A stretch of DNA of 10,032 nucleotides from a bacterium (lineage in GTDB: Bacteria; Zhuqueibacterota; Zhuqueibacteria; Oceanimicrobiales; Oceanimicrobiaceae), in contig JBHHXT010000183.1 in NCBI GenBank assembly GCA_046757165.1, forward strand, positions 1 to 10,032, given 5' to 3'. The notes beneath the pieces were generated by a model. It searched no databases. It worked only from the letters and a program-made list of their open reading frames with translations, and was not told the origin of the DNA. Of this stretch, positions 1-9,930 are shown in pieces (the first letter of the stretch is position 1; each line of letters starts with the position of its first letter). A program made the translations under genes and the position numbers.

Positions 1-55
1 CGCGGGTTTCATATTTGGCTTCGTCCAACACCTGGTTCTTGATGCCAAAACTGTA
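1..55. repeat. Exact 55-bp direct repeat, copy at the window start (identical to 1576-1630)
   Basis: cgcgggtttcatatttggcttcgtccaacacctggttcttgatgccaaaactgta occurs at 1-55 and 1576-1630. The offset is 1575 nt (525 codons) and the first mismatch is at 56/1631. Confidence 0.97.
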
Positions 56-422
56 CGTGCCATTGCCGGCGATGACCGAGGTGACGTCAAGCTCGGCGAA
101 GCTTCCGGCTGTCACATCTCCAAGAACGCCAACCGGACTGCCCTCGAGCTCGGGCGCATTGCTAAAATTCAGAATCCCCTCCGTCCACGGCCCGCCGCCG
201 GAAAAGTCGTTTGACACCAGATACACCGCGCCGCCGTCAATGCTGCTGCCTGCAACATAAAGGCGCAACCGTGCAGCTCGCACAGCGGAGGTCAAACCGC
301 TGACCTCGAATTTGAAGAAGGAGCGAAACGTGTTCATCTCCACTTTGCAGGTGGTTTTCGTGCCATAATTTTTGAGAGGCGCGGTCACTTTCACCTGGCC
401 GTCATGGGTCGGCTGAAAGGTG
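1..422 (-). other. Domain: DNRLRE/CBM96-like module, copy 3 (end cut by the window edge)
   Basis: FQPTHDGQVKVTAPLKNYG...SFFKFEVSGL...ARLRLYV...DGGAVYLVSN...WTEGILNFSNAP...LDVTSVIAGNGTYSFGIKNQVLDEAKYETR, a close paralog of copy 2. Confidence 0.8.
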
Positions 423-3400
423 AGACCGCCACTGCCACCGGATTGGACGAAGATCGCCGTGACATTCTTGTCGGAGTTCATGGTGACCGTGACCGGATTG
501 GCGTTGCCGCTCAAGTCACCGCTCCAGCCAGCCAGCTGCCAGCCTGAACCTGGCACAGCAGTCACTTGCACGACCGTCCCGTCCAAATATTCGCCGCCTG
601 GAGGGTTCAAATCGACGCTGCCTGTCCCCTGCTTCGTAACGGCCAATGTCCAGGGTCCCGCCGCCGGCTCAACTGTAATGGTGCCCATCATGCCGCGATC
701 TTTGTGACCCGGAATCGTACAAAGAACGTCATACGCTCCGGTGAGGGTCGGCACCATGAATAATTCGGTCGCGCCGCTGGTCAACAACTCAATGGCTTTG
801 AAATAGGGCACTTTGATCTCAGCGTTCGAGTCCTGAGCCTTCCTTGTCACCACCGTCTTGTAAAACTCCGGCGCGGTATAATAATGTTTGCTGCTGTTGC
901 CAGGCGGATTGACAAGATTTATCGTGTAACCGGAATCCCTGGTCAGATTCAGGTCTGCTGGATCAAATGACAGGGTCCCGTCCGCATTCTCGACCATCTG
1001 CACCGTGAGGTCCTGAGCCGTGGCCCAGACATCATGCGAGCCAGAAGTTCTGGCGTCTGTCGTGAGACCCATGTCGAACTGAGAGTCGACCTCCAAATCC
1101 AATTCAAACCCTTGTCCGCCTGTGATGGTGATTTGCCCGACCATGCCGGCGATGGCATGGCCCGGAATGGTACAAATGAAGTCATACGTCCCCGCGAGAA
1201 CCGGGACAAAGTAGATCTCGAGCTCGCCACCGATCAACAGTTCTACCCCTCTGAAATAGGGCGCCTTGTACTCCGCATCCGCCGTTTCGATCTTGCGGGT
1301 AGCAATCGCCTTGTAGAAATCCGGAAACACCTCCTGGGTGGCAAAATAGTGCTTGCTGACGTTGCTTGCGGGATTGACAATCTTGAGAACGTAGGGCTTC
1401 CCCGCTTCAAATGTGAGTTGATTGGGACTAAACGACAACGCCGCGCCCGACTCGACCATGTTCATCGTCACCACGGTTTTCTGGTCCCAATCGACATCAG
1501 CCACCCAATCCGACGCCTTCACCGGATTGTGGCCAGGTTCGGTCGCGATGATCAGCTCAGGCGGGAAGTTGCCTTCGCGGGTTTCATATTTGGCTTCGTC
1601 CAACACCTGGTTCTTGATGCCAAAACTGTAAGTTCCGTTGCCGCTGACCACCGAACTCACATCCACTTCGACATACGTGCCTTCTGTGACTCGACCGAGA
1701 TTTGCCACGGGAGTTCCCGTGATTTGCGGGGCGTTGCTGAAACTCAATATCGATTCAATCCAGGGCGTGCCGCCAACCAGAAAATTGTTCGACACCGAAT
1801 AGACCGCGCCGCCGTCTTCGCTGCTGCCAACCACGTGAAATCGCAGCCGCGCATGTTCTACGGCCACATTCAAACCGGTGACCTCAAATTTGAAAAAGGA
1901 CAGAAACTTGTTGAGGGTAACCTTGGCGGTGCCCTTTGCACCATAGTTCTTGCCGGGTTCGGTCACCTTGACCTGGCCGTCGTGGATTGGCGTAAACGTG
2001 AATGTTGTTTCTTCAGGTACTTCATCAAAAACAGCCGTGATGCTCTTGTCGCGGTCCATTGTGATCACAGCCGGATTGTCAGAGCCGGTCAAATCGCCAA
2101 CCCAGTGGCTGAACGTCCAGCCGGGGGTCGGGCGTGCGGTCAACTGTACCACGGCGCCCGCGTCATGCTGTTGACCCGCAGGGCTGATCTCTACGACGCC
2201 GTTGCCCTGTTCAGTCACGAACAGATCAAAGGGGCCAGCTTCGCCACCGCCGGTGAGCACGATCAGCTCTGGCGTGTGAAAGCCTTCTTTGGATGAGTAC
2301 TCTGCACGGTCAAAGGAGTTATTCTCGAGCGCGAAACTGTAGATACCGTCACCCGTCACAGCCTCGGTAACATCAAACTGCACAACGTCCCCCGAGGCGA
2401 CGTTGCCGGGGCTGCTGCTCAGGGCACTGCCGGCTATCGGGGGCGCGTTGTTGAATGTCAATCCTTCTTCATCCCAGGGGGTGGATGAGTTGACATGGTT
2501 GTTTGACACCAGGAACAGCTCGCCGCCATCGTCCGTGCCACTTGCGGCGTGGAGCTGTAAAGTCGCGCGGGTCACCTGGCTGCCGACACCGGTAACATTG
2601 AATTTTAGAAAGCTCATCCGCGCCGTGTTTTCCGCGTGCAGTTCGGCCTCATCGCCATAGTTGCGGTCCGGTCTGGTGGCGCGCACTCGTGTATCATCTG
2701 TGGGTTGAAAGATTGCCGGCTCGCCAAAGGGCGAGTCAAAAACGCGCAGCTCGCCGACAGAGATGAAGGGGGTGCTGCCCCCGGGCGCGCCAATGATACG
2801 GATGGCATCCCCATTTTCAGGCGAAAACAACAGGGAGGACATTTCGTAGTTCACCTCATTGTTGCCGGGGTAGGGGGGCACGCTGTTGAGGAAGTGCACC
2901 TCGCGCCAACCCCCGTCTTCGCGCACCTGCACAGCGAGGGATTCAAACCAGCCGCCATCAGCAAAATGAACGCCTTCCTGAAAAATCAATTTTGCAAATC
3001 TCTGCGTGCTGTTGAACTCATAGCCAATCCAATCCTGTGAGCGCGCCCCACCGCCGGTATTGGTGTCATACTGCTGTAGGGGATTGCTGCCGCCCGCAGG
3101 CGGGAACACATTGTCCTTTATGACACCGATGTTCGGGTTGCCATTACCTGATGGATTGGTGATGAGCGCGATGGGCGTTCCGCGGTGGGTGATGTCTGCC
3201 TCGCCTGGTGCTTTCATCACGACGTAGCCCGTATCTACACCTGTGAGTCCGGATGAATCCGTTACGCGCAGGGTCAGTTTCAAATAGATCAAATCCCAGG
3301 GGTCGCCATGGTCAGCCGGCACAATGGAGCCCGATTTCCCAGGCACCTGAAACGAGGCCGGGTGCACGTGGTCGTTATGGTGTAAATCGACCACCCAACT

Positions 3401-5158
3401 GTACTGCAGGTTTGATTCAGGTTCATCCGGGTCGACAGCGGTACCATTCAAGAGGACGGTTTCGTCGGCGAAGGCGCTGGCATTGGTCCCCGGTTGCAGG
3501 ATGGTCACCGAGGGGGGCAGGCTGCCAACGATAATCTCCGGCAGAAAAAAGCTCGATGTTGCCCCACTCTCATCCTCGACGGTCAATTTCGCCTCAAAGG
3601 TCCCGTTCTGTTGATAGGTGTAGACCGGATCGGCTCGAGTGGAGGTGTCGCCGTTGCCGAAGTCCCATGAAAAACTCAGATCATCATTGTCAGGATCGAA
3701 CGAATCGCTGCCTTTGAAATGCACGGCCAGCGGGGCGTGTCCAAACAGCGTGTCAGCGCTGGCGACGGCAACCGGGTCCTGGTTTACGGTCGCACCGGTG
3801 TACCTGATTTCGTTGACGGTTCCCCTGGTAATGTCAACATAAAAGACATTGCCCGTAAGCGGGTCTGTTTCCAGGTCCACGATCCCGTGCTCGAACCGCC
3901 CCCCGGAGAATTGCGCAAAATCCCGTACTTCGATGATGTTGTCATCGTCGTCGACTTCAAGCACTTTGATCCAGGCTTGCTCGAAATCTGCAAAGAAATT
4001 GACGTTCCAGTAGTCACGCGGGTATTTGGTGCCGGTGTAGAAAGGTCCGGCGGTTACCGAAGCGCCAATAAACCCTGACGGAGAAGATTGGCTGGCATTG
4101 GTATGATGCCAGTAGATCGATGGCGGCGTGTGTTCCGCAGGGTTTTCCGCTGTCCCAATGGTACTGCAGCCGCTGTGGTCAGGGTTTTTTCGCTGATAAG
4201 CTGACAGGGCATTCGGACCCTCAAAACAGGGCCAGCCGAAGTTCTCGCCGCCACCCACACGCGAGACGTTCAAGTCTTCCCACGTACCCCAGCCAACATC
4301 GCCGATATAGACCGATCCGGGATTCCCGTCCGCCGGGTTCGTGCTGCCATTCTGGCGCACATTGAAGCGAAACGGATTGCGCAGCCCATAAGCCCAAATC
4401 TTCGACTGTTTATCATCGGGATTGCCCGTGTAGTAGGGATTAGAAGGCAGCCCGCGACCCGTTTCAGGGTCAACGCGAAGAATTTTGCCCGCGAGACTCT
4501 TCAAGTATTGCGAGCGAAACGCGCCAACGTCCTCATCTTCCGAGAATCTGTCATCACCAAAACACTCTGGATGTCCGCCACCCGCATCGACGGTCCCGGC
4601 CAAAGAGGCCTCTCCGGCCCCGACGAACAACGTCCCGTCGGTGCCAAATCGCACGGTTCCAATCACGTGCTGAAGCCCACAGGCGATGATGCCATCGCCC
4701 CAATCGGTGCCGATCAAAACCTGGCGGGTGGACAAATCCGCTTCGTTAAGATTACCTGTTTTCGCCTGGTACCGGCTCAAACGAGAAAAAGCGTAAATAT
4801 CGTTGTCCTGGCCGCCGGTCGGATCCACCGTATACAGGAGATAAACCCAGCGATTGTTTTCAAAATCCGGGTCGACGGCGATTCCCAACATTCCGTTGGA
4901 TTCATTGCTCAGCACTTCGCTTTCCAGATCGATGAACGGATCGGCGATTTTCTCGCCATCTTGGATGACATAAACTCGACCGTTTTTCTCGGTGACAAAG
5001 ATTCGATTACCGGGTGCGAAGGCTATCCCGACAGGTAAGTTAAACTTCTTACCCGAAGCAGCATTCTTGATGACAAAATCTCTTGGGAGATTCTGTGAAA
5101 GGACGCTACTCGCGGTGAGAACCCAGAGTAAGGTCAGCATGGTTGCTTGCTTGCACAT
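1..5158 (-). CDS. Large secreted multidomain protein, 3'-truncated at the window edge: PQQ-dependent sugar dehydrogenase (GSDH-like) propeller + PKD + Ig-like + discoidin-like + 3x DNRLRE/CBM96-like + 2x InlB-B-like + 2x cupredoxin
   Basis: Hand translation of the minus strand shows no stop from 5158 to 2: MCKQATMLTLLWVLTASSVLSQNLPRDFVIK...FNLPVGIAFAPGNRIFVTEKNGRVYV...GMLGIAVDPDFENNRWVYLLYT...GKILRVDP...IWAYGLRNPFRF...YIGDVGWGTWEDLN...GENFGWPCFEG...SWDFGNG...CTIPGHAIAGM...CTIPGHKDRGM...YSFGIKNQVLDEAKYETR. The start is uncertain: in-frame ATGs lie at 5221, 5176, 5158 and 5140. 5158 was chosen for an upstream AGGA and a typical 21-aa signal peptide. Confidence 0.93.
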   Translation of the reverse strand, partial: MCKQATMLTLLWVLTASSVLSQNLPRDFVIKNAASGKKFNLPVGIAFAPGNRIFVTEKNGRVYVIQDGEKIADPFIDLESEVLSNESNGMLGIAVDPDFENNRWVYLLYTVDPTGGQDNDIYAFSRLSRYQAKTGNLNEADLSTRQVLIGTDWGDGIIACGLQHVIGTVRFGTDGTLFVGAGEASLAGTVDAGGGHPECFGDDRFSEDEDVGAFRSQYLKSLAGKILRVDPETGRGLPSNPYYTGNPDDKQSKIWAYGLRNPFRFNVRQNGSTNPADGNPGSVYIGDVGWGTWEDLNVSRVGGGENFGWPCFEGPNALSAYQRKNPDHSGCSTIGTAENPAEHTPPSIYWHHTNASQSSPSGFIGASVTAGPFYTGTKYPRDYWNVNFFADFEQAWIKVLEVDDDDNIIEVRDFAQFSGGRFEHGIVDLETDPLTGNVFYVDITRGTVNEIRYTGATVNQDPVAVASADTLFGHAPLAVHFKGSDSFDPDNDDLSFSWDFGNGDTSTRADPVYTYQQNGTFEAKLTVEDESGATSSFFLPEIIVGSLPPSVTILQPGTNASAFADETVLLNGTAVDPDEPESNLQYSWVVDLHHNDHVHPASFQVPGKSGSIVPADHGDPWDLIYLKLTLRVTDSSGLTGVDTGYVVMKAPGEADITHRGTPIALITNPSGNGNPNIGVIKDNVFPPAGGSNPLQQYDTNTGGGARSQDWIGYEFNSTQRFAKLIFQEGVHFADGGWFESLAVQVREDGGWREVHFLNSVPPYPGNNEVNYEMSSLLFSPENGDAIRIIGAPGGSTPFISVGELRVFDSPFGEPAIFQPTDDTRVRATRPDRNYGDEAELHAENTARMSFLKFNVTGVGSQVTRATLQLHAASGTDDGGELFLVSNNHVNSSTPWDEEGLTFNNAPPIAGSALSSSPGNVASGDVVQFDVTEAVTGDGIYSFALENNSFDRAEYSSKEGFHTPELIVLTGGGEAGPFDLFVTEQGNGVVEISPAGQQHDAGAVVQLTARPTPGWTFSHWVGDLTGSDNPAVITMDRDKSITAVFDEVPEETTFTFTPIHDGQVKVTEPGKNYGAKGTAKVTLNKFLSFFKFEVTGLNVAVEHARLRFHVVGSSEDGGAVYSVSNNFLVGGTPWIESILSFSNAPQITGTPVANLGRVTEGTYVEVDVSSVVSGNGTYSFGIKNQVLDEAKYETREGNFPPELIIATEPGHNPVKASDWVADVDWDQKTVVTMNMVESGAALSFSPNQLTFEAGKPYVLKIVNPASNVSKHYFATQEVFPDFYKAIATRKIETADAEYKAPYFRGVELLIGGELEIYFVPVLAGTYDFICTIPGHAIAGMVGQITITGGQGFELDLEVDSQFDMGLTTDARTSGSHDVWATAQDLTVQMVENADGTLSFDPADLNLTRDSGYTINLVNPPGNSSKHYYTAPEFYKTVVTRKAQDSNAEIKVPYFKAIELLTSGATELFMVPTLTGAYDVLCTIPGHKDRGMMGTITVEPAAGPWTLAVTKQGTGSVDLNPPGGEYLDGTVVQVTAVPGSGWQLAGWSGDLSGNANPVTVTMNSDKNVTAIFVQSGGSGGLTFQPTHDGQVKVTAPLKNYGTKTTCKVEMNTFRSFFKFEVSGLTSAVRAARLRLYVAGSSIDGGAVYLVSNDFSGGGPWTEGILNFSNAPELEGSPVGVLGDVTAGSFAELDVTSVIAGNGTYSFGIKNQVLDEAKYETR
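449..653 (-). other. Domain: InlB B-repeat-like repeat, copy 2
   Basis: WTLAVTKQGTGSVDLNPPGGEYLDGTVVQVTAVPGSGWQLAGWSGDLSGNANPVTVTMNSDKNVTAIF. Confidence 0.85.
671..1030 (-). other. Domain: cupredoxin (type-1 blue copper), copy 2
   Basis: LSFDPADLNL...INLVNPPGNSSKHYYTAPEFYK...LFMVPTLTGAYDVLCTIPGHKDRGMMGTITV. Ligands: His 884-886, Cys 719-721, His 704-706, Met 689-691. Confidence 0.9.
1124..1490 (-). other. Domain: cupredoxin (type-1 blue copper), copy 1
   Basis: LSFSPNQLTFEAGKPYVLKIVNP..SKHYF...IYFVPVLAGTYDFICTIPGHAIAGMVGQITI. Ligands: His 1349-1351, Cys 1172-1174, His 1157-1159, Met 1142-1144. Confidence 0.9.
1544..2003 (-). other. Domain: DNRLRE/CBM96-like module, copy 2
   Basis: FTPIHDGQVKVTEPGKNYG...SFFKFEVTGL...ARLRFHV...DGGAVYSVSN...WIESILSFSNAP...VDVSSVVSGNGTYSFGI...YETREGNFPPELII. 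Confidence 0.8.
1576..1630. repeat. Exact 55-bp direct repeat, internal copy (identical to 1-55)
   Basis: Base-by-base identity with 1-55, in the same reading frame. Confidence 0.97.
2027..2231 (-). other. Domain: InlB B-repeat-like (Flg_new-type) repeat, copy 1
   Basis: FDLFVTEQGNGVVEISP...GAVVQLTARPTPGWTFSHWVGDLTGSDNPAVITMDRDKSITAVF. Confidence 0.82.
2252..2714 (-). other. Domain: DNRLRE/CBM96-like carbohydrate-binding module, copy 1
   Basis: FQPTDDTRVRATRPDRNYG...SFLKFNVTG...VTRATLQL...WDEEGLTFNNAP...FDVTEAVTGDGIYSFAL...YSSKEG..PELIV. Confidence 0.8.
2735..3200 (-). other. Domain: discoidin/F5-8 type C (galactose-binding-like) fold, tentative
   Basis: QDWIGYEFNSTQRFAKLIFQEG...SLAVQVREDGGWREV...LLFSPENGDAIRIIG...FISVGELRVF follows the W-I-x-x-x-F ... 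W-x-x-V ... I-R-I ... E-L-R-V-F pattern of discoidin-like modules. Confidence 0.55.
3215..3520 (-). other. Domain: second PKD/Ig-like domain with a histidine cluster
   Basis: PPSVTILQP...LNGTAVDPDE..NLQYSWVVDLHHNDHVHP...DHGD...YLKLTLRVTDSSGLT. Confidence 0.7.
3530..3785 (-). other. Domain: PKD
   Basis: NQDPVAVASAD...GHAPLAVHFKGSDSFDPDNDDLSFSWDFGNGDTSTRADPVYTYQQNGTFEAKLTVED contains the PKD signature WDFGxG. Confidence 0.9.
3794..5080 (-). other. Domain: glucose/sorbosone dehydrogenase (GSDH, soluble PQQ sugar dehydrogenase-like) beta-propeller
   Basis: Family motifs GMLGIAVDPDF, QHVIGTVRFGTDGTLFVGAGE (His at 4667-4669), SLAGKILRVD, PSNPY, IWAYGLRNPFRF (Arg 4379-4381, Asn 4376-4378), GDVG..TWEDLN, GENFGWPCFEG, SVTAGPFYTGTKYP and FFADF. 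Confidence 0.88.
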
Positions 5159-5466
5159 GAGGCTAATTTCCTGCATTGATGTATGAATGAATAAGTCTAA
5201 TCGGGGCAGATAAACTATCATCTCAGTGTTGCAAAAATATTTTGGGGCTCAGCTATCCGTGAGCTATCAGTGGAAAGGTGCAAACCGGACATCTCAGGAG
5301 AATGATCGCAGGAAGGTATAGAATCCGCGATCAAGTATGTCACCGCAGAAGGATTTTCGCAAAGCATCTAACCCCTGATGAAACTGCATTTTCGAGCGCG
5401 GTCGGCCGCGTCAGGCTATCTCACATCTTTTTTTCGATTTTGTGCGAAAAATCAGACTATTACTTA

Positions 5467-5500: not shown

Positions 5501-5558
5501 CAAGTTGCGTTGAGATGACCCTTATTTAGTGATTGACCGAAATCTCATTAAACGCTCT

Positions 5559-5592
5559 GTCATAGCGAGGCGTTTTTTGCCGCAGCAATCTC
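5559..5592. repeat. Degenerate REP-like interspersed element (GTCATTGCGAGG...GCAATCTC type), single arm
   Basis: gtcatagcgaggcgttttttgccgcagcaatctc resembles the widespread GTCATTGCGAG-n-CGAAGCAATC palindromic element, with an internal ggc..gcc stem. No partner arm is visible. Confidence 0.55.
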
Positions 5593-5726
5593 CAGCCGTG
5601 TCCATGAGGTAAGTTACAGCGACAGATTTTTTTCTAACCTGATTAATTCACAAATCTGAAAACTTAGCTAGTATAACAAACATACAAACAAATACTTACA
5701 GAAACTTGGTCTCAAAAACTTTTTTT

Positions 5727-5812
5727 CCACGAAGTTCACGAAGACCACGAGGGAGGTTAACAGATGTGCTTCTTACCCTGTTTTTTCTTGGTGTTCTTCG
5801 TGCACTTCATGG
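5727..5812. repeat. Inverted repeat built from 3x 9-bp CACGAAG-type units
   Basis: The left arm ccacgaagttcacgaagaccacgagg (5727-5752) matches the reverse complement of the right arm 5787-5812 (ccatgaagtgcacgaagaacaccaag) at 21/26 positions. The spacer is 34 nt. Confidence 0.8.
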
Positions 5813-5853
5813 TTCATGAATTCTCCAGGCTAAACTTTTCAGCGGGTTCAGGT

Positions 5854-5915
5854 GGTAGGGTGTTCACGCTTTAGCGTGTTTTCCCCGACCCCAAGCTGAA
5901 GCTTGAACACCGACC
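5854..5915. repeat. REP doublet (REPIN-like) hairpin downstream of the CotH gene
   Basis: ggtgttcacgctttagcgtg (5859-5878) matches the reverse complement of 5892-5911 (ggtgttcaagcttcagcttg) at 17/20 positions, and each arm is itself palindromic. Confidence 0.75.
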
Positions 5916-6030
5916 GCCCCCCGGTCAGACCGCGCACTCAGGAAAAAACATTCTGGGTTCCGGCCTGGGATAAACTGCAAAAAGGTCTGGAAATGGTCCA
6001 ACACGGTCTGTGACCGTGTTTTGGCAGACG

Positions 6031-9000
6031 CTATTTTTGCAGCAAAATCTTGCGGGCAAACGAGTGTCCGCCTGCCACCAGCCGCACAAAGTAAACGCCG
6101 GAGCTGATTTCAACACGGTGGTCATCCCGGCCGGCCCAGCGCACTTTTTTGAATCCTGCCGGTTGGAATTCGTCCACAAGAATGCGAACCACCTGGCCCA
6201 CGAGGTTGTAGATGAGCAGCCTGACTCTGGTTTCTTCAGCAAGCGCATATTCGATGGTGGTCTCCGCATTGAAAGGATTTGGGTACGCAGAGCTGAGGGA
6301 GAACCGGTCCGGAAGGCTGGAAGCAGACGGTGAGTCAGGAGCCGTTGTCACAAGCGTGTCCAATTCGACGACGAGCTGCGCCGGGAAGTTGCCCTCCTTG
6401 GCAACAAATTCGAGGGTGTCTGCCGAGGCGCTGACCACCGCAAGGGAAAGGATATCCCCCCCGGTGACGACTGCTGTGACGTCCAGGGTAGCGATCTCGC
6501 CATCGCTCAAAGCGGCAAATGAGGCTGCCGGCTCGCCGTCGACCGGAGGGGCGTTTGTCCAGACGATCTCGTTTTCCGACCAATCGTTCGCAACGGTGTG
6601 AATCGCGCCACCGTTCAGGCTGCCTTGGACAACGCACAGTCTGAGGACGGCCTTTTTGACAGGTCGTTGCAAGCCGGACAAATCGAACTTCAAGAAGGTT
6701 ATGATGTCGTGCCCGGACGGTGACGCTGCCTGCAGCGTTTGTCCATCGCCGTGGGGCGTCTCTTGCTCACCCGAATGGATGTAGGCGTCCTCGGCAGCGA
6801 AGAATTTCGTTCCTGCTGTGTCAGAAAGAACGGCAAACGTGGAATCACTCACCACCGAGTCTCTGGCCGTAATGACCGCAATCGGACCGCTTTCGGCGCC
6901 AAACGGCACTTTCGTCCGAATTTCCCCGGAAGATTCAAGGGTTGGAATCAGGGCCACCCTGCTACCAAACCGCACACGCCTCAGGTCATCGAAGTTCTTG
7001 CCTTTGATGGTGACCGTAGTGCCGGCGACCCCTTCGGTGGGCGTGAACGAAGCAATGGCGGCCGGTTCAGTCACGACAAACTCCGCGGGACTCTGCACGC
7101 TGCCCCCCGGCGTCACGACCCCGATCTTGCCGCTTTTTGCGCTCTCCGGCACGACCGCTCTGATTTCAGTTTCCGAGACCACCGAGAAGGCTGCTTGCGT
7201 GCCAGCAAATGTCACCTCCGTGGCTCCGCCGAGATGGCGCCCGAGGATGGCAATCTCCGCACCGACTTCACCGCTGTCCGGTCTGAATGAGTCGATGACC
7301 GGCGTTGGCAGGACGATCGGCTGAAAATGCGCGGTCAGGGTCTCGTCATCCCGCAGGTTCAGCTCGATGGTGCTGTTGTCCGAGGAAGCCGCGCCGCTCC
7401 AGTGCGAAAACTCGAATCCCGCCGCAGGAATCGCCTCGATTTCTACCGGCAGCCTCTTGAAGTATTTGCCGGTCCACGGCAAATCCGCATGCGCCAACGT
7501 ATTGACGCGAATCTGGCCGCTGCCCGGCGGGCTTGACTGCACGGTCAGTTCAAAGATGTTTTGCAGCCGGAAAAACGACTTGATTTGATTCCACTGAATG
7601 TCATCCCGTCTGGAGATGAAGTCCCGTACCTGCGCCAATCCAGCGAGCCAGTGCGAGCGCGGCGCTTGCCACCGGTCGAGCTCCAGCGGGATGTCCGGCT
7701 CGATCTCGCTCAGCAGTTGCTCGAACACCTGGCGGATATGGTCCGGTTGCAGGGTTGTGTTGAGCAAATCCGCAAACCGGCTGGCGAACCTTGCGTTGAA
7801 AGCCTCGTTTTCTACCAGCTTGCGCATGAAAATGGTCGCGAACAGTTGCCGTTCGGAGTCTCCGCGGGAGATGTCCGTGCGGACGGTGTCGCGTGTTGCC
7901 CAGACCAGGGACTTTATTTTGGGTTTGCGATAGGTACTTTCTGCGTCCCACAGAATCCAGCGCCACTTGCCGGTCAAACTTCGCTCGCGGTAAAAAAAGT
8001 TGTTGTTGTGCGGCCAGTCTTTGTGGCCGAGATAAATCTGTAAGATATTGTAGTCGATGAAATTATTCAGTTCCATGAGCTCCTGGACGTGCTCGAATTC
8101 ACTTTTTCGCTCGATATCATTGTCTTTGAAAAAGCGGTGCAGCTCTCGCCACGCCTGCAAGTCACCCGCTTTCACCGACGGCGTCTCGTTGAACGCCCAC
8201 TCGAGCAGGTCGGCATCTTCGACCCCATAATTTTGCGTGAGATAGTCGTCATGGATGCGCTCCCGCAGCATGTAGATGCCCCAGAGCTCGCCATTGATGT
8301 ACAAAACCACGGGCTTGTGAGCGGAAACGACGCCGCCGAACTCGGCCCACAACGTGTGATTGAGCGGGTCCCGCAGCAACGTCCATTCCTCACTGCCAAA
8401 GGTCTGATCAAAGGATCCGCCCGCATGCACGACCAACTGGTCGAACTCATCGATGTCCTTCTGCTCGAACACCTGATGGCGCAACTTACTGTCGCCGTAG
8501 TCGCTGCGAAAGTAGAGGCGCATGGATTTCTTGGGATAGGAGCGTGAATGCGCGCCATGAATCCGCACCCCCGCGTTGATTTGAAATCCGGAGCCATCGT
8601 GTTCCACCAGGTTGACGGACACCGGCCGTTCCCACTTTCGGCCCTTTTTTTCGGGATGCATGAAAATGCCCTGTCCCCCGTGCAGATTTTTTTCATCTGT
8701 GGCCATGGAGAGGACGGGTAGATGCCCCGCATAGTCAATACCGTAGAACTGACTGATGTCTTCACTCACAGGCGTATCATCGTCGAATGCGCGTGCTCGT
8801 ATGACTGTGGTGGTGGAAAGGAGAATCGGCTCGCTGTACCTGTCGCTTTCCACGGTCACCGCCGAGCCGTCCGTGGTGTAACGAAGGGTCACGTTGCCCA
8901 GGCTACTCGCAAGCTCGACTGCCACCTCACCCGCAAAGAAGCCACTGGCCAGGGAAAAACTGAGCGCGTCGCTCCCGGGGGTTTTGCGGCGGTTGGTCCC

Positions 9001-9930
9001 GCCCGGCGTCGGCTCGGCCGTTTTCTCGAACGTGCCGTCGCCGTCCGGGATGCGCGCCAGCGAGATGTCCTGCTGCTGCGCGCCAAATTTGTGGCTGTCG
9101 ACAAGCTGGCCGCCGGGGGTGAAGAGATCCACAACCTCGCCCAAAGCGCTGAGCTTGAAATTCGTATGCAGCTCACTGCCGGTGCGGTCTTTTCCGGAAG
9201 CCCAGACCAACAGATACGCTTCGGGGTGAAGCGTGACTTCAGGGAGCGTCCACCGGGCTGGTTGGTCCCTGTCGTCGGTGAGCGTGAATCCGGCTAAGTG
9301 TACGGCCTGATTGCTCCGGTTGTAAAGCTCGATCCAGTCAGAAGAGTCGCCATCTTCGTCGAAATTGATCTCGCTATTCGAGGCCAGAAGCTCGTTGATG
9401 ACAATGTCTGTCGCGCCCGGACCTGGCGCGGTAATCACGTTCGCCGCCGCTGGGGTGGGCGTGGTCGTGAATTGAAACACGCCGGCGCCATCCGGTGAAC
9501 GCGCCATCGAGATGTCGTCGGTCTGGGCGCCAAACAGCATCGTATCGACTGCGGCGCCCTGAGCATCGTACAACCCAATGAATTCGCCGCTCTTGCCAAG
9601 CTTGAAATTGGTGTGCAGCTCATCGCCTTTGCGGTCTTTTCCGGAGGCCCAGATCAGCACGTAGGTGCTCGCCTCGAGGGCAAGGTCAGGAAACTGCCAC
9701 AATGCCCGTTCCGTCGATTTGTCTGTGAGCGAAAACCCTTCCAGGTTGACCCTCGCCTCACCGTTGTTGTGAAGTTCTATCCAGTCCGAGGCGTCCCCGT
9801 CCTGATCGAAATTGGTGCTCCCGTTTCCGGCAAGAAACTCGTTGATAACGAGGGTCTGAGTCCAGGCTGGCTCCCCGAGTCCACTGAGCAAAGAAAGGAG
9901 GAGGAAGAGGCAAGAACGCGGATAGAACAA
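6031..9930 (-). CDS. Secreted CotH-family kinase with 2x lamin-tail, FN3-associated, InlB-B-like, 2x IPT/TIG, DNRLRE/CBM96-like and FlgD-Ig/T9SS type-A-like C-terminal domains
   Basis: 1299-aa ORF with a TTG start and GGAG 6 nt upstream. Motifs: hydrophobic signal peptide; two VINE..N...D.DGD.SDWIEL.N lamin-tail repeats (aa ~26-165, ~175-313); RYTTDGS...YSEPI (aa ~324-398); CotH GVRIHGAHSRSYPKKS, LYINGELWGIY..RER, DWPHNN, WRWILWDAE; PVIDSFRP/IASFTP...GTTVTIKG IPT/TIG pair; EDAYI...FLKFDLSGL...WSENEIVWTNAP DNRLRE; C-terminal YPNPFNAETTIEY...IYNLVGQVVR.LV...W.GRD...SSGVYFVRL. Confidence 0.95.
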   Translation of the reverse strand: MFYPRSCLFLLLSLLSGLGEPAWTQTLVINEFLAGNGSTNFDQDGDASDWIELHNNGEARVNLEGFSLTDKSTERALWQFPDLALEASTYVLIWASGKDRKGDELHTNFKLGKSGEFIGLYDAQGAAVDTMLFGAQTDDISMARSPDGAGVFQFTTTPTPAAANVITAPGPGATDIVINELLASNSEINFDEDGDSSDWIELYNRSNQAVHLAGFTLTDDRDQPARWTLPEVTLHPEAYLLVWASGKDRTGSELHTNFKLSALGEVVDLFTPGGQLVDSHKFGAQQQDISLARIPDGDGTFEKTAEPTPGGTNRRKTPGSDALSFSLASGFFAGEVAVELASSLGNVTLRYTTDGSAVTVESDRYSEPILLSTTTVIRARAFDDDTPVSEDISQFYGIDYAGHLPVLSMATDEKNLHGGQGIFMHPEKKGRKWERPVSVNLVEHDGSGFQINAGVRIHGAHSRSYPKKSMRLYFRSDYGDSKLRHQVFEQKDIDEFDQLVVHAGGSFDQTFGSEEWTLLRDPLNHTLWAEFGGVVSAHKPVVLYINGELWGIYMLRERIHDDYLTQNYGVEDADLLEWAFNETPSVKAGDLQAWRELHRFFKDNDIERKSEFEHVQELMELNNFIDYNILQIYLGHKDWPHNNNFFYRERSLTGKWRWILWDAESTYRKPKIKSLVWATRDTVRTDISRGDSERQLFATIFMRKLVENEAFNARFASRFADLLNTTLQPDHIRQVFEQLLSEIEPDIPLELDRWQAPRSHWLAGLAQVRDFISRRDDIQWNQIKSFFRLQNIFELTVQSSPPGSGQIRVNTLAHADLPWTGKYFKRLPVEIEAIPAAGFEFSHWSGAASSDNSTIELNLRDDETLTAHFQPIVLPTPVIDSFRPDSGEVGAEIAILGRHLGGATEVTFAGTQAAFSVVSETEIRAVVPESAKSGKIGVVTPGGSVQSPAEFVVTEPAAIASFTPTEGVAGTTVTIKGKNFDDLRRVRFGSRVALIPTLESSGEIRTKVPFGAESGPIAVITARDSVVSDSTFAVLSDTAGTKFFAAEDAYIHSGEQETPHGDGQTLQAASPSGHDIITFLKFDLSGLQRPVKKAVLRLCVVQGSLNGGAIHTVANDWSENEIVWTNAPPVDGEPAASFAALSDGEIATLDVTAVVTGGDILSLAVVSASADTLEFVAKEGNFPAQLVVELDTLVTTAPDSPSASSLPDRFSLSSAYPNPFNAETTIEYALAEETRVRLLIYNLVGQVVRILVDEFQPAGFKKVRWAGRDDHRVEISSGVYFVRLVAGGHSFARKILLQK

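Follow-up and report, generated by a model that had tools for sequence, protein, structure and literature searches.

Results and Discussion

The stretch of DNA analysed here (the window, 10,032 nt) is the complete contig C183 of genome G000 (GCA_046757165.1, 99.98% complete) from an uncultured vent bacterium, and its minus strand carries one giant gene that joins a GSDH-type propeller, a series of CBM96 modules and a pair of cupredoxins. We propose, with a probability of roughly 0.4, that its product is an exported and tethered array of type-1 copper carriers working largely independently of the propeller head, because the pair is found elsewhere without the propeller and the head elsewhere without the pair, and because both lie far apart in the chain and only the pair is amplified. 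In the suggested mechanism a two-cupredoxin cassette from a likely respiratory lipoprotein family would have been inserted into a secreted scaffold, and recombination of adjacent CBM96 copies with one another would then have multiplied it to some three tandem copies. The protein would be exported by the type IX secretion system (T9SS) to the cell surface or matrix, its type-1 sites would be loaded with copper, the CBM96 and InlB modules would tether it, and electrons may be exchanged with cytochrome-porins of the Cyc2 type in the outer membrane or with donors and acceptors that are dissolved or mineral. The conserved pocket residues make it probable that the propeller has a ligand or a redox chemistry of its own, and it could be one occasional electron source.

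Reading frame and domains

The frame runs without a stop from an ATG at 5158 to position 2 at the contig start (1719 codons), in agreement with the initial annotation, which had been made from the sequence alone and had described a single uninterrupted minus-strand frame. It had also called the frame hidden, which holds for its track of open reading frames (ORFs), where the frame is missing because the gene runs off contig C183, but not for the protein database and the Atlas, in which it is recorded. An alternative in-frame ATG lies at 5221, and the start of the orthologue from genome G012 is in register with 5158. The domains listed in that annotation (GSDH, PKD, discoidin-like, three CBM96/DNRLRE and two Copper-bind) were recovered by Pfam and NCBIfam, with GSDH at residues 40–416 (E 2.8e-29), PKD_4 at 459–535, three CBM96 (E 4e-62) and two Copper-bind matches (E 2.2e-12) in Pfam and three DNRLRE matches within the 1719 codons in NCBIfam; two InlB B-repeats found by Pfam had not been named before. 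The order is signal peptide, GSDH propeller, PKD, Ig-like, discoidin-like, CBM96 a, InlB repeat, CBM96 b, cupredoxin 1, cupredoxin 2, InlB repeat and CBM96 c, and the features are as follows.

5093..5158, minus strand: start codon and predicted Sec signal peptide (residues 1–22; sequence inspection, register of the G012 orthologue)
3797..5092, minus strand: six-bladed GSDH/Asd/HHIP-type propeller (residues 23–454), H164, R260 and N261 kept, RxRDV absent (Pfam, alignment, model)
3524..3784, minus strand: PKD domain (residues 459–545; PF18911, E 1.6e-16)
3209..3514, minus strand: second, putative Ig/PKD-like domain (about residues 549–650; conserved block in alignment A1, no Pfam match)
2723..3196, minus strand: discoidin-like (F5/8 type C) domain (about residues 655–812; Pfam 707–792, E 1.3e-5, 25.8 bits against a gathering cut-off of 28.2)
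2243..2710, minus strand: CBM96/DNRLRE module a (Pfam CBM96, NCBIfam DNRLRE)
2015..2224, minus strand: InlB B-repeat a (Pfam, two stretches)
1535..1993, minus strand: CBM96/DNRLRE module b (Pfam)
1118..1519, minus strand: cupredoxin 1, ligands H1270, C1329, H1334 and M1339 (Pfam, model, ligand check)
665..1018, minus strand: cupredoxin 2, ligands H1425, C1480, H1485 and M1490 (Pfam, model, ligand check)
443..649, minus strand: InlB B-repeat b (PF18998, residues 1504–1572)
35..415, minus strand: CBM96/DNRLRE module c, completed through either the loop junction or contig C473 (Pfam, overlap analysis)
35..1609, minus strand: 1575-nt (525-codon) in-frame unit of CBM96 tail, cupredoxin pair, InlB repeat and CBM96; collapsed repeat at about 3x depth (depth, repeats)
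1..64, no strand: repeat-to-repeat junction at about 2x depth (1–55 identical to 1576–1630)
35..89, no strand: 55 nt shared with the end of contig C473 (sequence identity, contig record 19 of run X3)
1610..1630, no strand: 21-nt tract common to 35–55, likely crossover region (repeat comparison, run contigs)

True gene end and a likely tandem copper unit

The 1719-codon frame is truncated by the assembly collapse of a repeat. Positions 1–55 of the window are an exact copy of 1576–1630, and the terminal 55-mer of contig C473 is identical to 35–89; the last 34 nt of the frame in the window belong to a repeat junction instead of continuing the gene towards its 3' end, which lies on C473. There the frame runs for 662 codons to a stop and encodes an InlB repeat, two CBM96, a Big_9 and a T9SS-type C-terminal sorting domain, the link between this gene and C473 being backed by the overlap and the X3 contig record 19. 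Depth was taken from Logan contigs of four runs (X1–X4) of one study, all of them hydrothermal vent metagenomes; no RNA run was among the listed holders of the sequence. In X1, X2 and X3 the unique flank has a depth of 24.7, 28.0 and 24.1, the unit (35 to about 1630) of 67.3, 84.6 and 77.6, i.e. 2.7–3.2 times the flank, a threefold value that may be a population mean, and the link from unit end to unit start of 50.9, 53.6 and 49.6 (1.9–2.1 times the flank). With 22.2 for the exit contig matching C473 in X3, the pattern of flank, unit, link and exit is 1:3:2:1. In the shallower X4 the unit pieces reach 2.3–3.4 times the flank, and the control contig C45 has depth medians of 22.9, 25.9, 24.5 and 7.8 in X1–X4 (eight long contigs listed per run).

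The simplest path is likely the flank, three in-frame 525-codon units and then C473, giving 3402 codons, while a one-unit version of the gene would have 2352. The three-unit protein of about 3402 aa would likely carry six predicted type-1 copper sites and seven CBM96 modules, and the public 1719-aa record likely represents about half of the protein. Both cupredoxins described earlier are present in the frame, but their cassette likely exists in about three copies and not in one. The amplified unit includes the copper pair and excludes the propeller. As contigs drop rare variants, its copies can be called near-identical but not strictly identical. The unit junction falls inside a 21-nt stretch shared by CBM96 b and c, and the flank of X2 and X3 has three different letters at 1618–1620, reducing the perfect match down to 8 nt; this variant suggests continuing recombination.

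The extra depth might also come from an excised 1575-nt circle or from a mix of strains that differ greatly in copy number, the chromosomal gene having a single unit. Short-read graphs cannot separate a tandem array from a circle and no listed contig spans the stretch, but the unit is a partial reading frame without a replication gene and the junction-to-flank ratio is about 2 in three runs, so that we consider this highly improbable. A chimeric assembly of the fusion was rejected, as independent contigs overlap both the propeller flank and the copper unit, with zero mismatches in X1. Two other contigs of G000, C365 (with two Ser/Thr kinase-like frames) and C241, have first 55 nt that recur internally, at 2758 and 4203, respectively, and are possibly further collapsed repeats judging from this recurrence.

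The cupredoxin pair

Both cupredoxins have the full His/Cys/His/Met ligand sets that had been claimed for them. Their model has the cupredoxin fold, with a pLDDT (predicted local distance difference test) score of 96.9 and a match to 4hcf at Z 12.2 and a root-mean-square deviation (rmsd) of 1.1 over 88 residues, and it forms a rigid two-domain unit (predicted template-modelling score, pTM, 0.93). The pair has five histidines, of which four are type-1 ligands, and lacks a His/Met-rich extension. Type-2/3 histidine motifs (HxH, HCH) were sought in the pair and none was found, and a multicopper oxidase or ceruloplasmin-like enzyme was rejected on these missing histidines. Among solved structures no two-domain arrangement matched that of the pair, although the superpositions with NirK and multicopper oxidases (rmsd 13–19 Å) are weak evidence.

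A search for relatives of the pair gave 599 representatives at E≤0.001, and the best 150 of these are stand-alone proteins of 66–823 aa with one or two pairs. P0127 (409 aa, cluster of 5) is a secreted stand-alone pair that bears a T9SS tail and lacks a propeller. In P0194 (823 aa) a related cupredoxin pair is accompanied by apparent DOMON domains and a C-terminal membrane segment, both assigned by eye. Within the class, 4 of 125 genomes have the pair and only G000 has the long fused frame, one frame of G013 being cut by a contig end. On contig C45 of G000 two lipoprotein-type genes hold three pairs 69–76% identical to the fused one; they lie downstream of genes for a Rieske protein, cytochrome b and cytochrome c, and two porin genes with the Cyc2 motif, as defined in passages of bioRxiv 10.1101/228056, are on the same contig, one of them with Trp for Phe in the motif. 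Cyc2-motif genes also lie near the pair in a similar neighbourhood at the loci L024 and L034. The family to which the copper pair belongs consists of predicted lipoproteins whose genes neighbour those of Cyc2-motif porins and of Rieske and cytochrome b proteins. The C45 cluster itself (about 29 kb, loci L044 and L022) has its Cyc2-motif cytochrome-porin genes at 587–1858 and 10665–11915, continues with two two-component systems, cupredoxins, a flavoprotein, a Rieske protein, a split cytochrome b and an 8-CxxCH cytochrome, and ends with the 2- and 4-cupredoxin lipoproteins; it is a candidate envelope-spanning electron-transfer chain.

The fused pair is 74–76% identical to the closest lipoprotein pairs, with about 0.16 nonsynonymous (dN) and about 2 or saturated synonymous (dS) substitutions per site (dN/dS about 0.08), and takes its own branch, further from the C45 pairs than these are from those of other genera. 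By these rates it is an old, conserved lineage under long purifying selection. A fresh copy of a C45 lipoprotein was rejected on the near saturation of synonymous sites and the separate branch.

If the cassette served for surface copper buffering or detoxification in the manner annotated for CopI-type cupredoxins, its amplification could be a dosage response to metal-rich vent fluid. The cupredoxins do show CopI matches, weak ones far under the cut-off (E 3e-6), all four runs are from hydrothermal vents and the amplified part is the copper-binding part. With only five histidines, four of them ligands, without a His/Met-rich extension and with 525 residues spent per two coppers the protein would be a poor sink, however, and the homologues examined sit in respiratory clusters, making such a role very unlikely.

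The propeller

The initial annotation regarded the head as a PQQ (pyrroloquinoline quinone)-dehydrogenase-like propeller, and while the fold, the histidine and the Arg-Asn dyad agree with this, the carboxylate-binding arginine motif is absent. The model is six-bladed (pLDDT 95.8) with the PQQ aldose dehydrogenase 3a9g as best match (E 9.7e-23, TM(target) 0.87), but Asd, HHIP and soluble glucose dehydrogenase (sGDH) match about equally, human HHIP with E 1.1e-21, a protein that is not known as a dehydrogenase. H164 aligns with the histidine of the HFGG motif in E. coli YliI and is invariant in 90 of 90 alignment rows, in which R260 is invariant as well and N261 conserved in at least 90%. Via the YliI alignment these three are the equivalents of His144, Arg228 and Asn229 of sGDH, named in passages of PMC6881810. 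The RIRDV of YliI is replaced by GIVDL at 425–429, where the alignment is loose and R421 is nearby, its NPQ by NPF, and E393 is aligned to the lysine of ALK, so that the lysine anchoring the carboxylate is not kept. We take the RxRDV arginines and the lysine of YliI to correspond to Arg406/Arg408 and Lys377 of sGDH. Arg408 and Lys377 are given as anchors of the PQQ carboxylates in passages of PMC6881789. RxR[DV] is present in 3 of the 119 best-listed homologues. A wide AA12-like bacterial family is defined by a different signature (bioRxiv 10.64898/2026.07.10.737718, in part); for our propeller no match to the TrAA12 Pfam family was found, and AA12 structures match at E around 1e-11, weaker than Asd. 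The PQQ signature of AA12 dehydrogenases comprises nine residues, Arg273 and Arg621 among them.

The genome had been proposed for a check of pqq genes. A pqqC-like gene was not found in G000, with no match to TIGR02111, whose control matched nowhere, and none to PF03070, whose control matched in 6 of 14; pqqB matches stay under the cut-off and one PqqD domain is present. PQQ can, however, be scavenged.

The best 119 of the 1186 long propeller relatives were examined; none of them has PF00127, and five have a domain with five CxxCH motifs. These five pentaheme proteins form the sister group of the query clade (45-row tree, support 99); within a 10-row propeller clade the copper module occurs in one and the pentaheme module in five; the other 109 listed homologues have neither CxxCH nor PF00127. 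The four closest relatives (65–68% identity; two complete, two partial) share the head and CBM96, carry TIG domains in addition and have no copper module, with P0002 and P0004 being complete orthologues without any redox module, and G012 has a propeller orthologue without copper and, separately, pair lipoproteins. In our protein 759 residues with six domains lie between the propeller and the first copper domain. The sister proteins P0006, P0008, P0013, P0014 and P0015 combine the propeller and the five-CxxCH domain with LamG, CBM96 and a T9SS-type or FlgD-like tail, and P0006, with its heme domain about 270 residues from the propeller, is arguably a better relay candidate than the present gene. 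Two more GSDH propellers of G000, at C191:870-2462 and on C200, have a dockerin-like and a T9SS tail, respectively, and neither has RxRDV.

These data bear on the relay from PQQ to copper within one self-contained chain that had been proposed at first. The propeller would then be a sugar dehydrogenase with a non-canonical site for PQQ or another quinone that passes electrons in cis to the type-1 coppers, much as cellobiose dehydrogenase and Coprinopsis cinerea PDH (CcPDH) hand theirs to a cytochrome domain, amplification adding storage. The matches of H164, R260 and N261 to the sGDH residues and 3a9g as best structural match speak for such an enzyme; CcPDH binds PQQ despite the loss of several sGDH residues (PMC4133262, in part), three of eight hand-picked haloarchaeal GSDH proteins have an adjacent cupredoxin and likewise lack RxRDV, and the 10-row clade has gained two redox modules. 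On the other hand the RIRDV and NPQ motifs are changed, human HHIP fits the model nearly as well, a pqqC or TENA family gene is missing from a 99.98% complete genome, the copper lies 759 residues and six domains away compared to about 35 residues in the haloarchaeal proteins, and the closest propellers are free of copper, with P0002 and P0004 complete without a redox module. The relay as first stated is not supported by these data, and its non-canonical form appears unlikely, although it deserves to be kept in view.

Secretion and scaffold

Secretion of the protein, as suggested in the initial annotation, is backed by the predicted signal peptide, the T9SS-type tail on C473 (PF18962, 29.9 bits, cut-off 27) and the translocon genes of G000, with SprA at E 4e-174 and 16 matches to the PorV family over the cut-off; 130 ORFs of this genome have the tail motif [YF]PNPFN. 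It also encodes 63 CBM96-like domains, spread over 21 ORFs that reach 5815 codons in length; such modules are a general secreted scaffold here and carry many unrelated heads, among them the neighbouring CotH kinase. Of the basic alginate-groove residues of TM6-N4 (K10, K22, K25, K27, K31 and R36; passages of PMC9971899), two of six are kept in module a (Lys10 and Arg36), and in modules b and c the essential Arg36 position is taken by Phe. Because the alginate residues are mostly lost and CBM96 is a general scaffold, docking on a particular polysaccharide, another part of the original proposal, is unsupported.

Such a scaffold, whose CBM96 repeats would recombine readily, might simply be subject to module shuffling without joint function, with the copper pair as a passenger and a neutral triplication. 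The abundance of CBM96-like domains, the junction inside CBM96 homology and the occurrence of the fusion in 1 of 125 genomes of the class fit this explanation, which nevertheless seems distinctly unlikely, as all eight copper ligands are intact, the pair has diverged by 24–31% from its in-genome paralogues at a dN/dS of about 0.08 and the depth of about 3x is seen in all four runs.

In the rest of the window, the minus strand at 6031–9930 encodes a secreted CotH-kinase protein of 1299 aa that also has two lamin-tail domains, TIG, CBM96 and a T9SS tail, and at 5520–5970 lie several families of short intergenic repeats, of which the genome has many further copies. Contigs C1 and C120 of G000 hold giant secreted CBM96-rich frames of 3916–5815 codons.

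Precedents and weight of the evidence

The exact architecture was found nowhere else in the searches run. Among 2551 candidates of 945–3009 aa the only hit was the query itself, and a weak search of 3010–5000 aa gave 0 of 1140. No long fused frame was seen in the 13 translated pair loci out of 5 from GTDB and 11 from metagenomes, many of which are truncated where their contig stops; the pattern detected no frame in L035 and L056, and L036 was left out. Uniqueness in these searches holds for the whole architecture but not for the pairing of propeller and cupredoxin, which already exists in RefSeq: in haloarchaea three of the eight GSDH proteins picked by hand from 166 plasmid records (WP_179270726.1, WP_049954330.1 and WP_247994962.1) have a cupredoxin directly before the propeller. 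This precedent lowers the novelty and makes it more likely that propellers of this kind are redox enzymes, and GSDH-family proteins can reduce cupredoxins (PMC6657660, in part). A characterised propeller-cupredoxin fusion was not found in the literature covered, with most subscription journals outside its scope and supplements excluded.

Several points weigh against a copper array that is independent of its head. The number of units is read from contig depth, which is not strictly a copy number, in a single study, and the assembly may itself have been built from three of its runs. Successive copper pairs are about 240 residues apart, so that a rigid wire would require folding of the chain, and the purifying selection on the pair may predate the fusion. 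The Cyc2 identity of the C45 porins is a motif-based candidate assignment. Finally, the haloarchaeal fusions and the pentaheme sister clade suggest that this propeller type recruits electron acceptors, which favours the relay. Both ideas could be combined: a T9SS-exported protein of 3400 aa would have a non-canonical quinoprotein head feeding electrons to a six-copper array that still recombines, and the number of intragenic copies would set its capacity. This combination is in our opinion quite improbable.

If the six-copper array is real, it would be a copper-based route of extracellular electron transfer derived from Cyc2-linked lipoproteins. The propeller represents a large subfamily (1186 long relatives) that is routinely labelled PQQ-dependent without having half of the canonical site, and the locus is a case of intragenic amplification concealed by short-read assembly.

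Comparison with known systems

The propeller shares with A. calcoaceticus sGDH (1c9u), E. coli YliI (2g8s) and P. aerophilum Asd (3a9g) the six blades, the catalytic histidine and the Arg-Asn dyad, but the RxRDV arginines and the ALK lysine are lost, family-specific insertions are present and the head is part of a giant secreted chain. CcPDH (AA8-AA12-CBM1) and cellobiose dehydrogenase are likewise secreted and unite a propeller or dehydrogenase with an electron-transfer domain and a CBM in one chain (PMC6881789, in part). Their carrier is heme b adjacent to the dehydrogenase, whereas here it is type-1 copper beyond six intervening domains, and the match to AA12 is far worse. The haloarchaeal proteins resemble ours in having Copper-bind and GSDH in one chain, GxRNP(W/F) and no RxRDV, but they have one adjacent N-terminal cupredoxin, a length of 631–736 aa and neither CBM96 nor a T9SS tail. 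TM6-N4 (7vbo), the founding member of CBM96, matches by sequence (E 8e-4) and through the Pfam family, and module a retains only the equivalents of its Lys10 and Arg36.

As in rusticyanin, auracyanin, sulfocyanin and AcoP, each cupredoxin has the C-x4-H-x4-M loop and an upstream histidine, auracyanin B being closest by sequence (E 6.6e-6) and AcoP matching with Z 11.9 and rmsd 2.5 over 116 residues. In contrast to these cupredoxins, we find a predicted rigid two-domain unit repeated in a secreted protein. Ceruloplasmin is a triplicated two-cupredoxin unit, and the tandem cupredoxins, six in the three-unit form, recall it as well as the multicopper oxidases and NirK, although in our protein type-2/3 histidines are lacking and the units are spaced by InlB and CBM96 modules. 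Most known extracellular electron transfer runs on hemes, and a secreted, tethered multi-cupredoxin from a Cyc2-linked lipoprotein family would be its copper counterpart.

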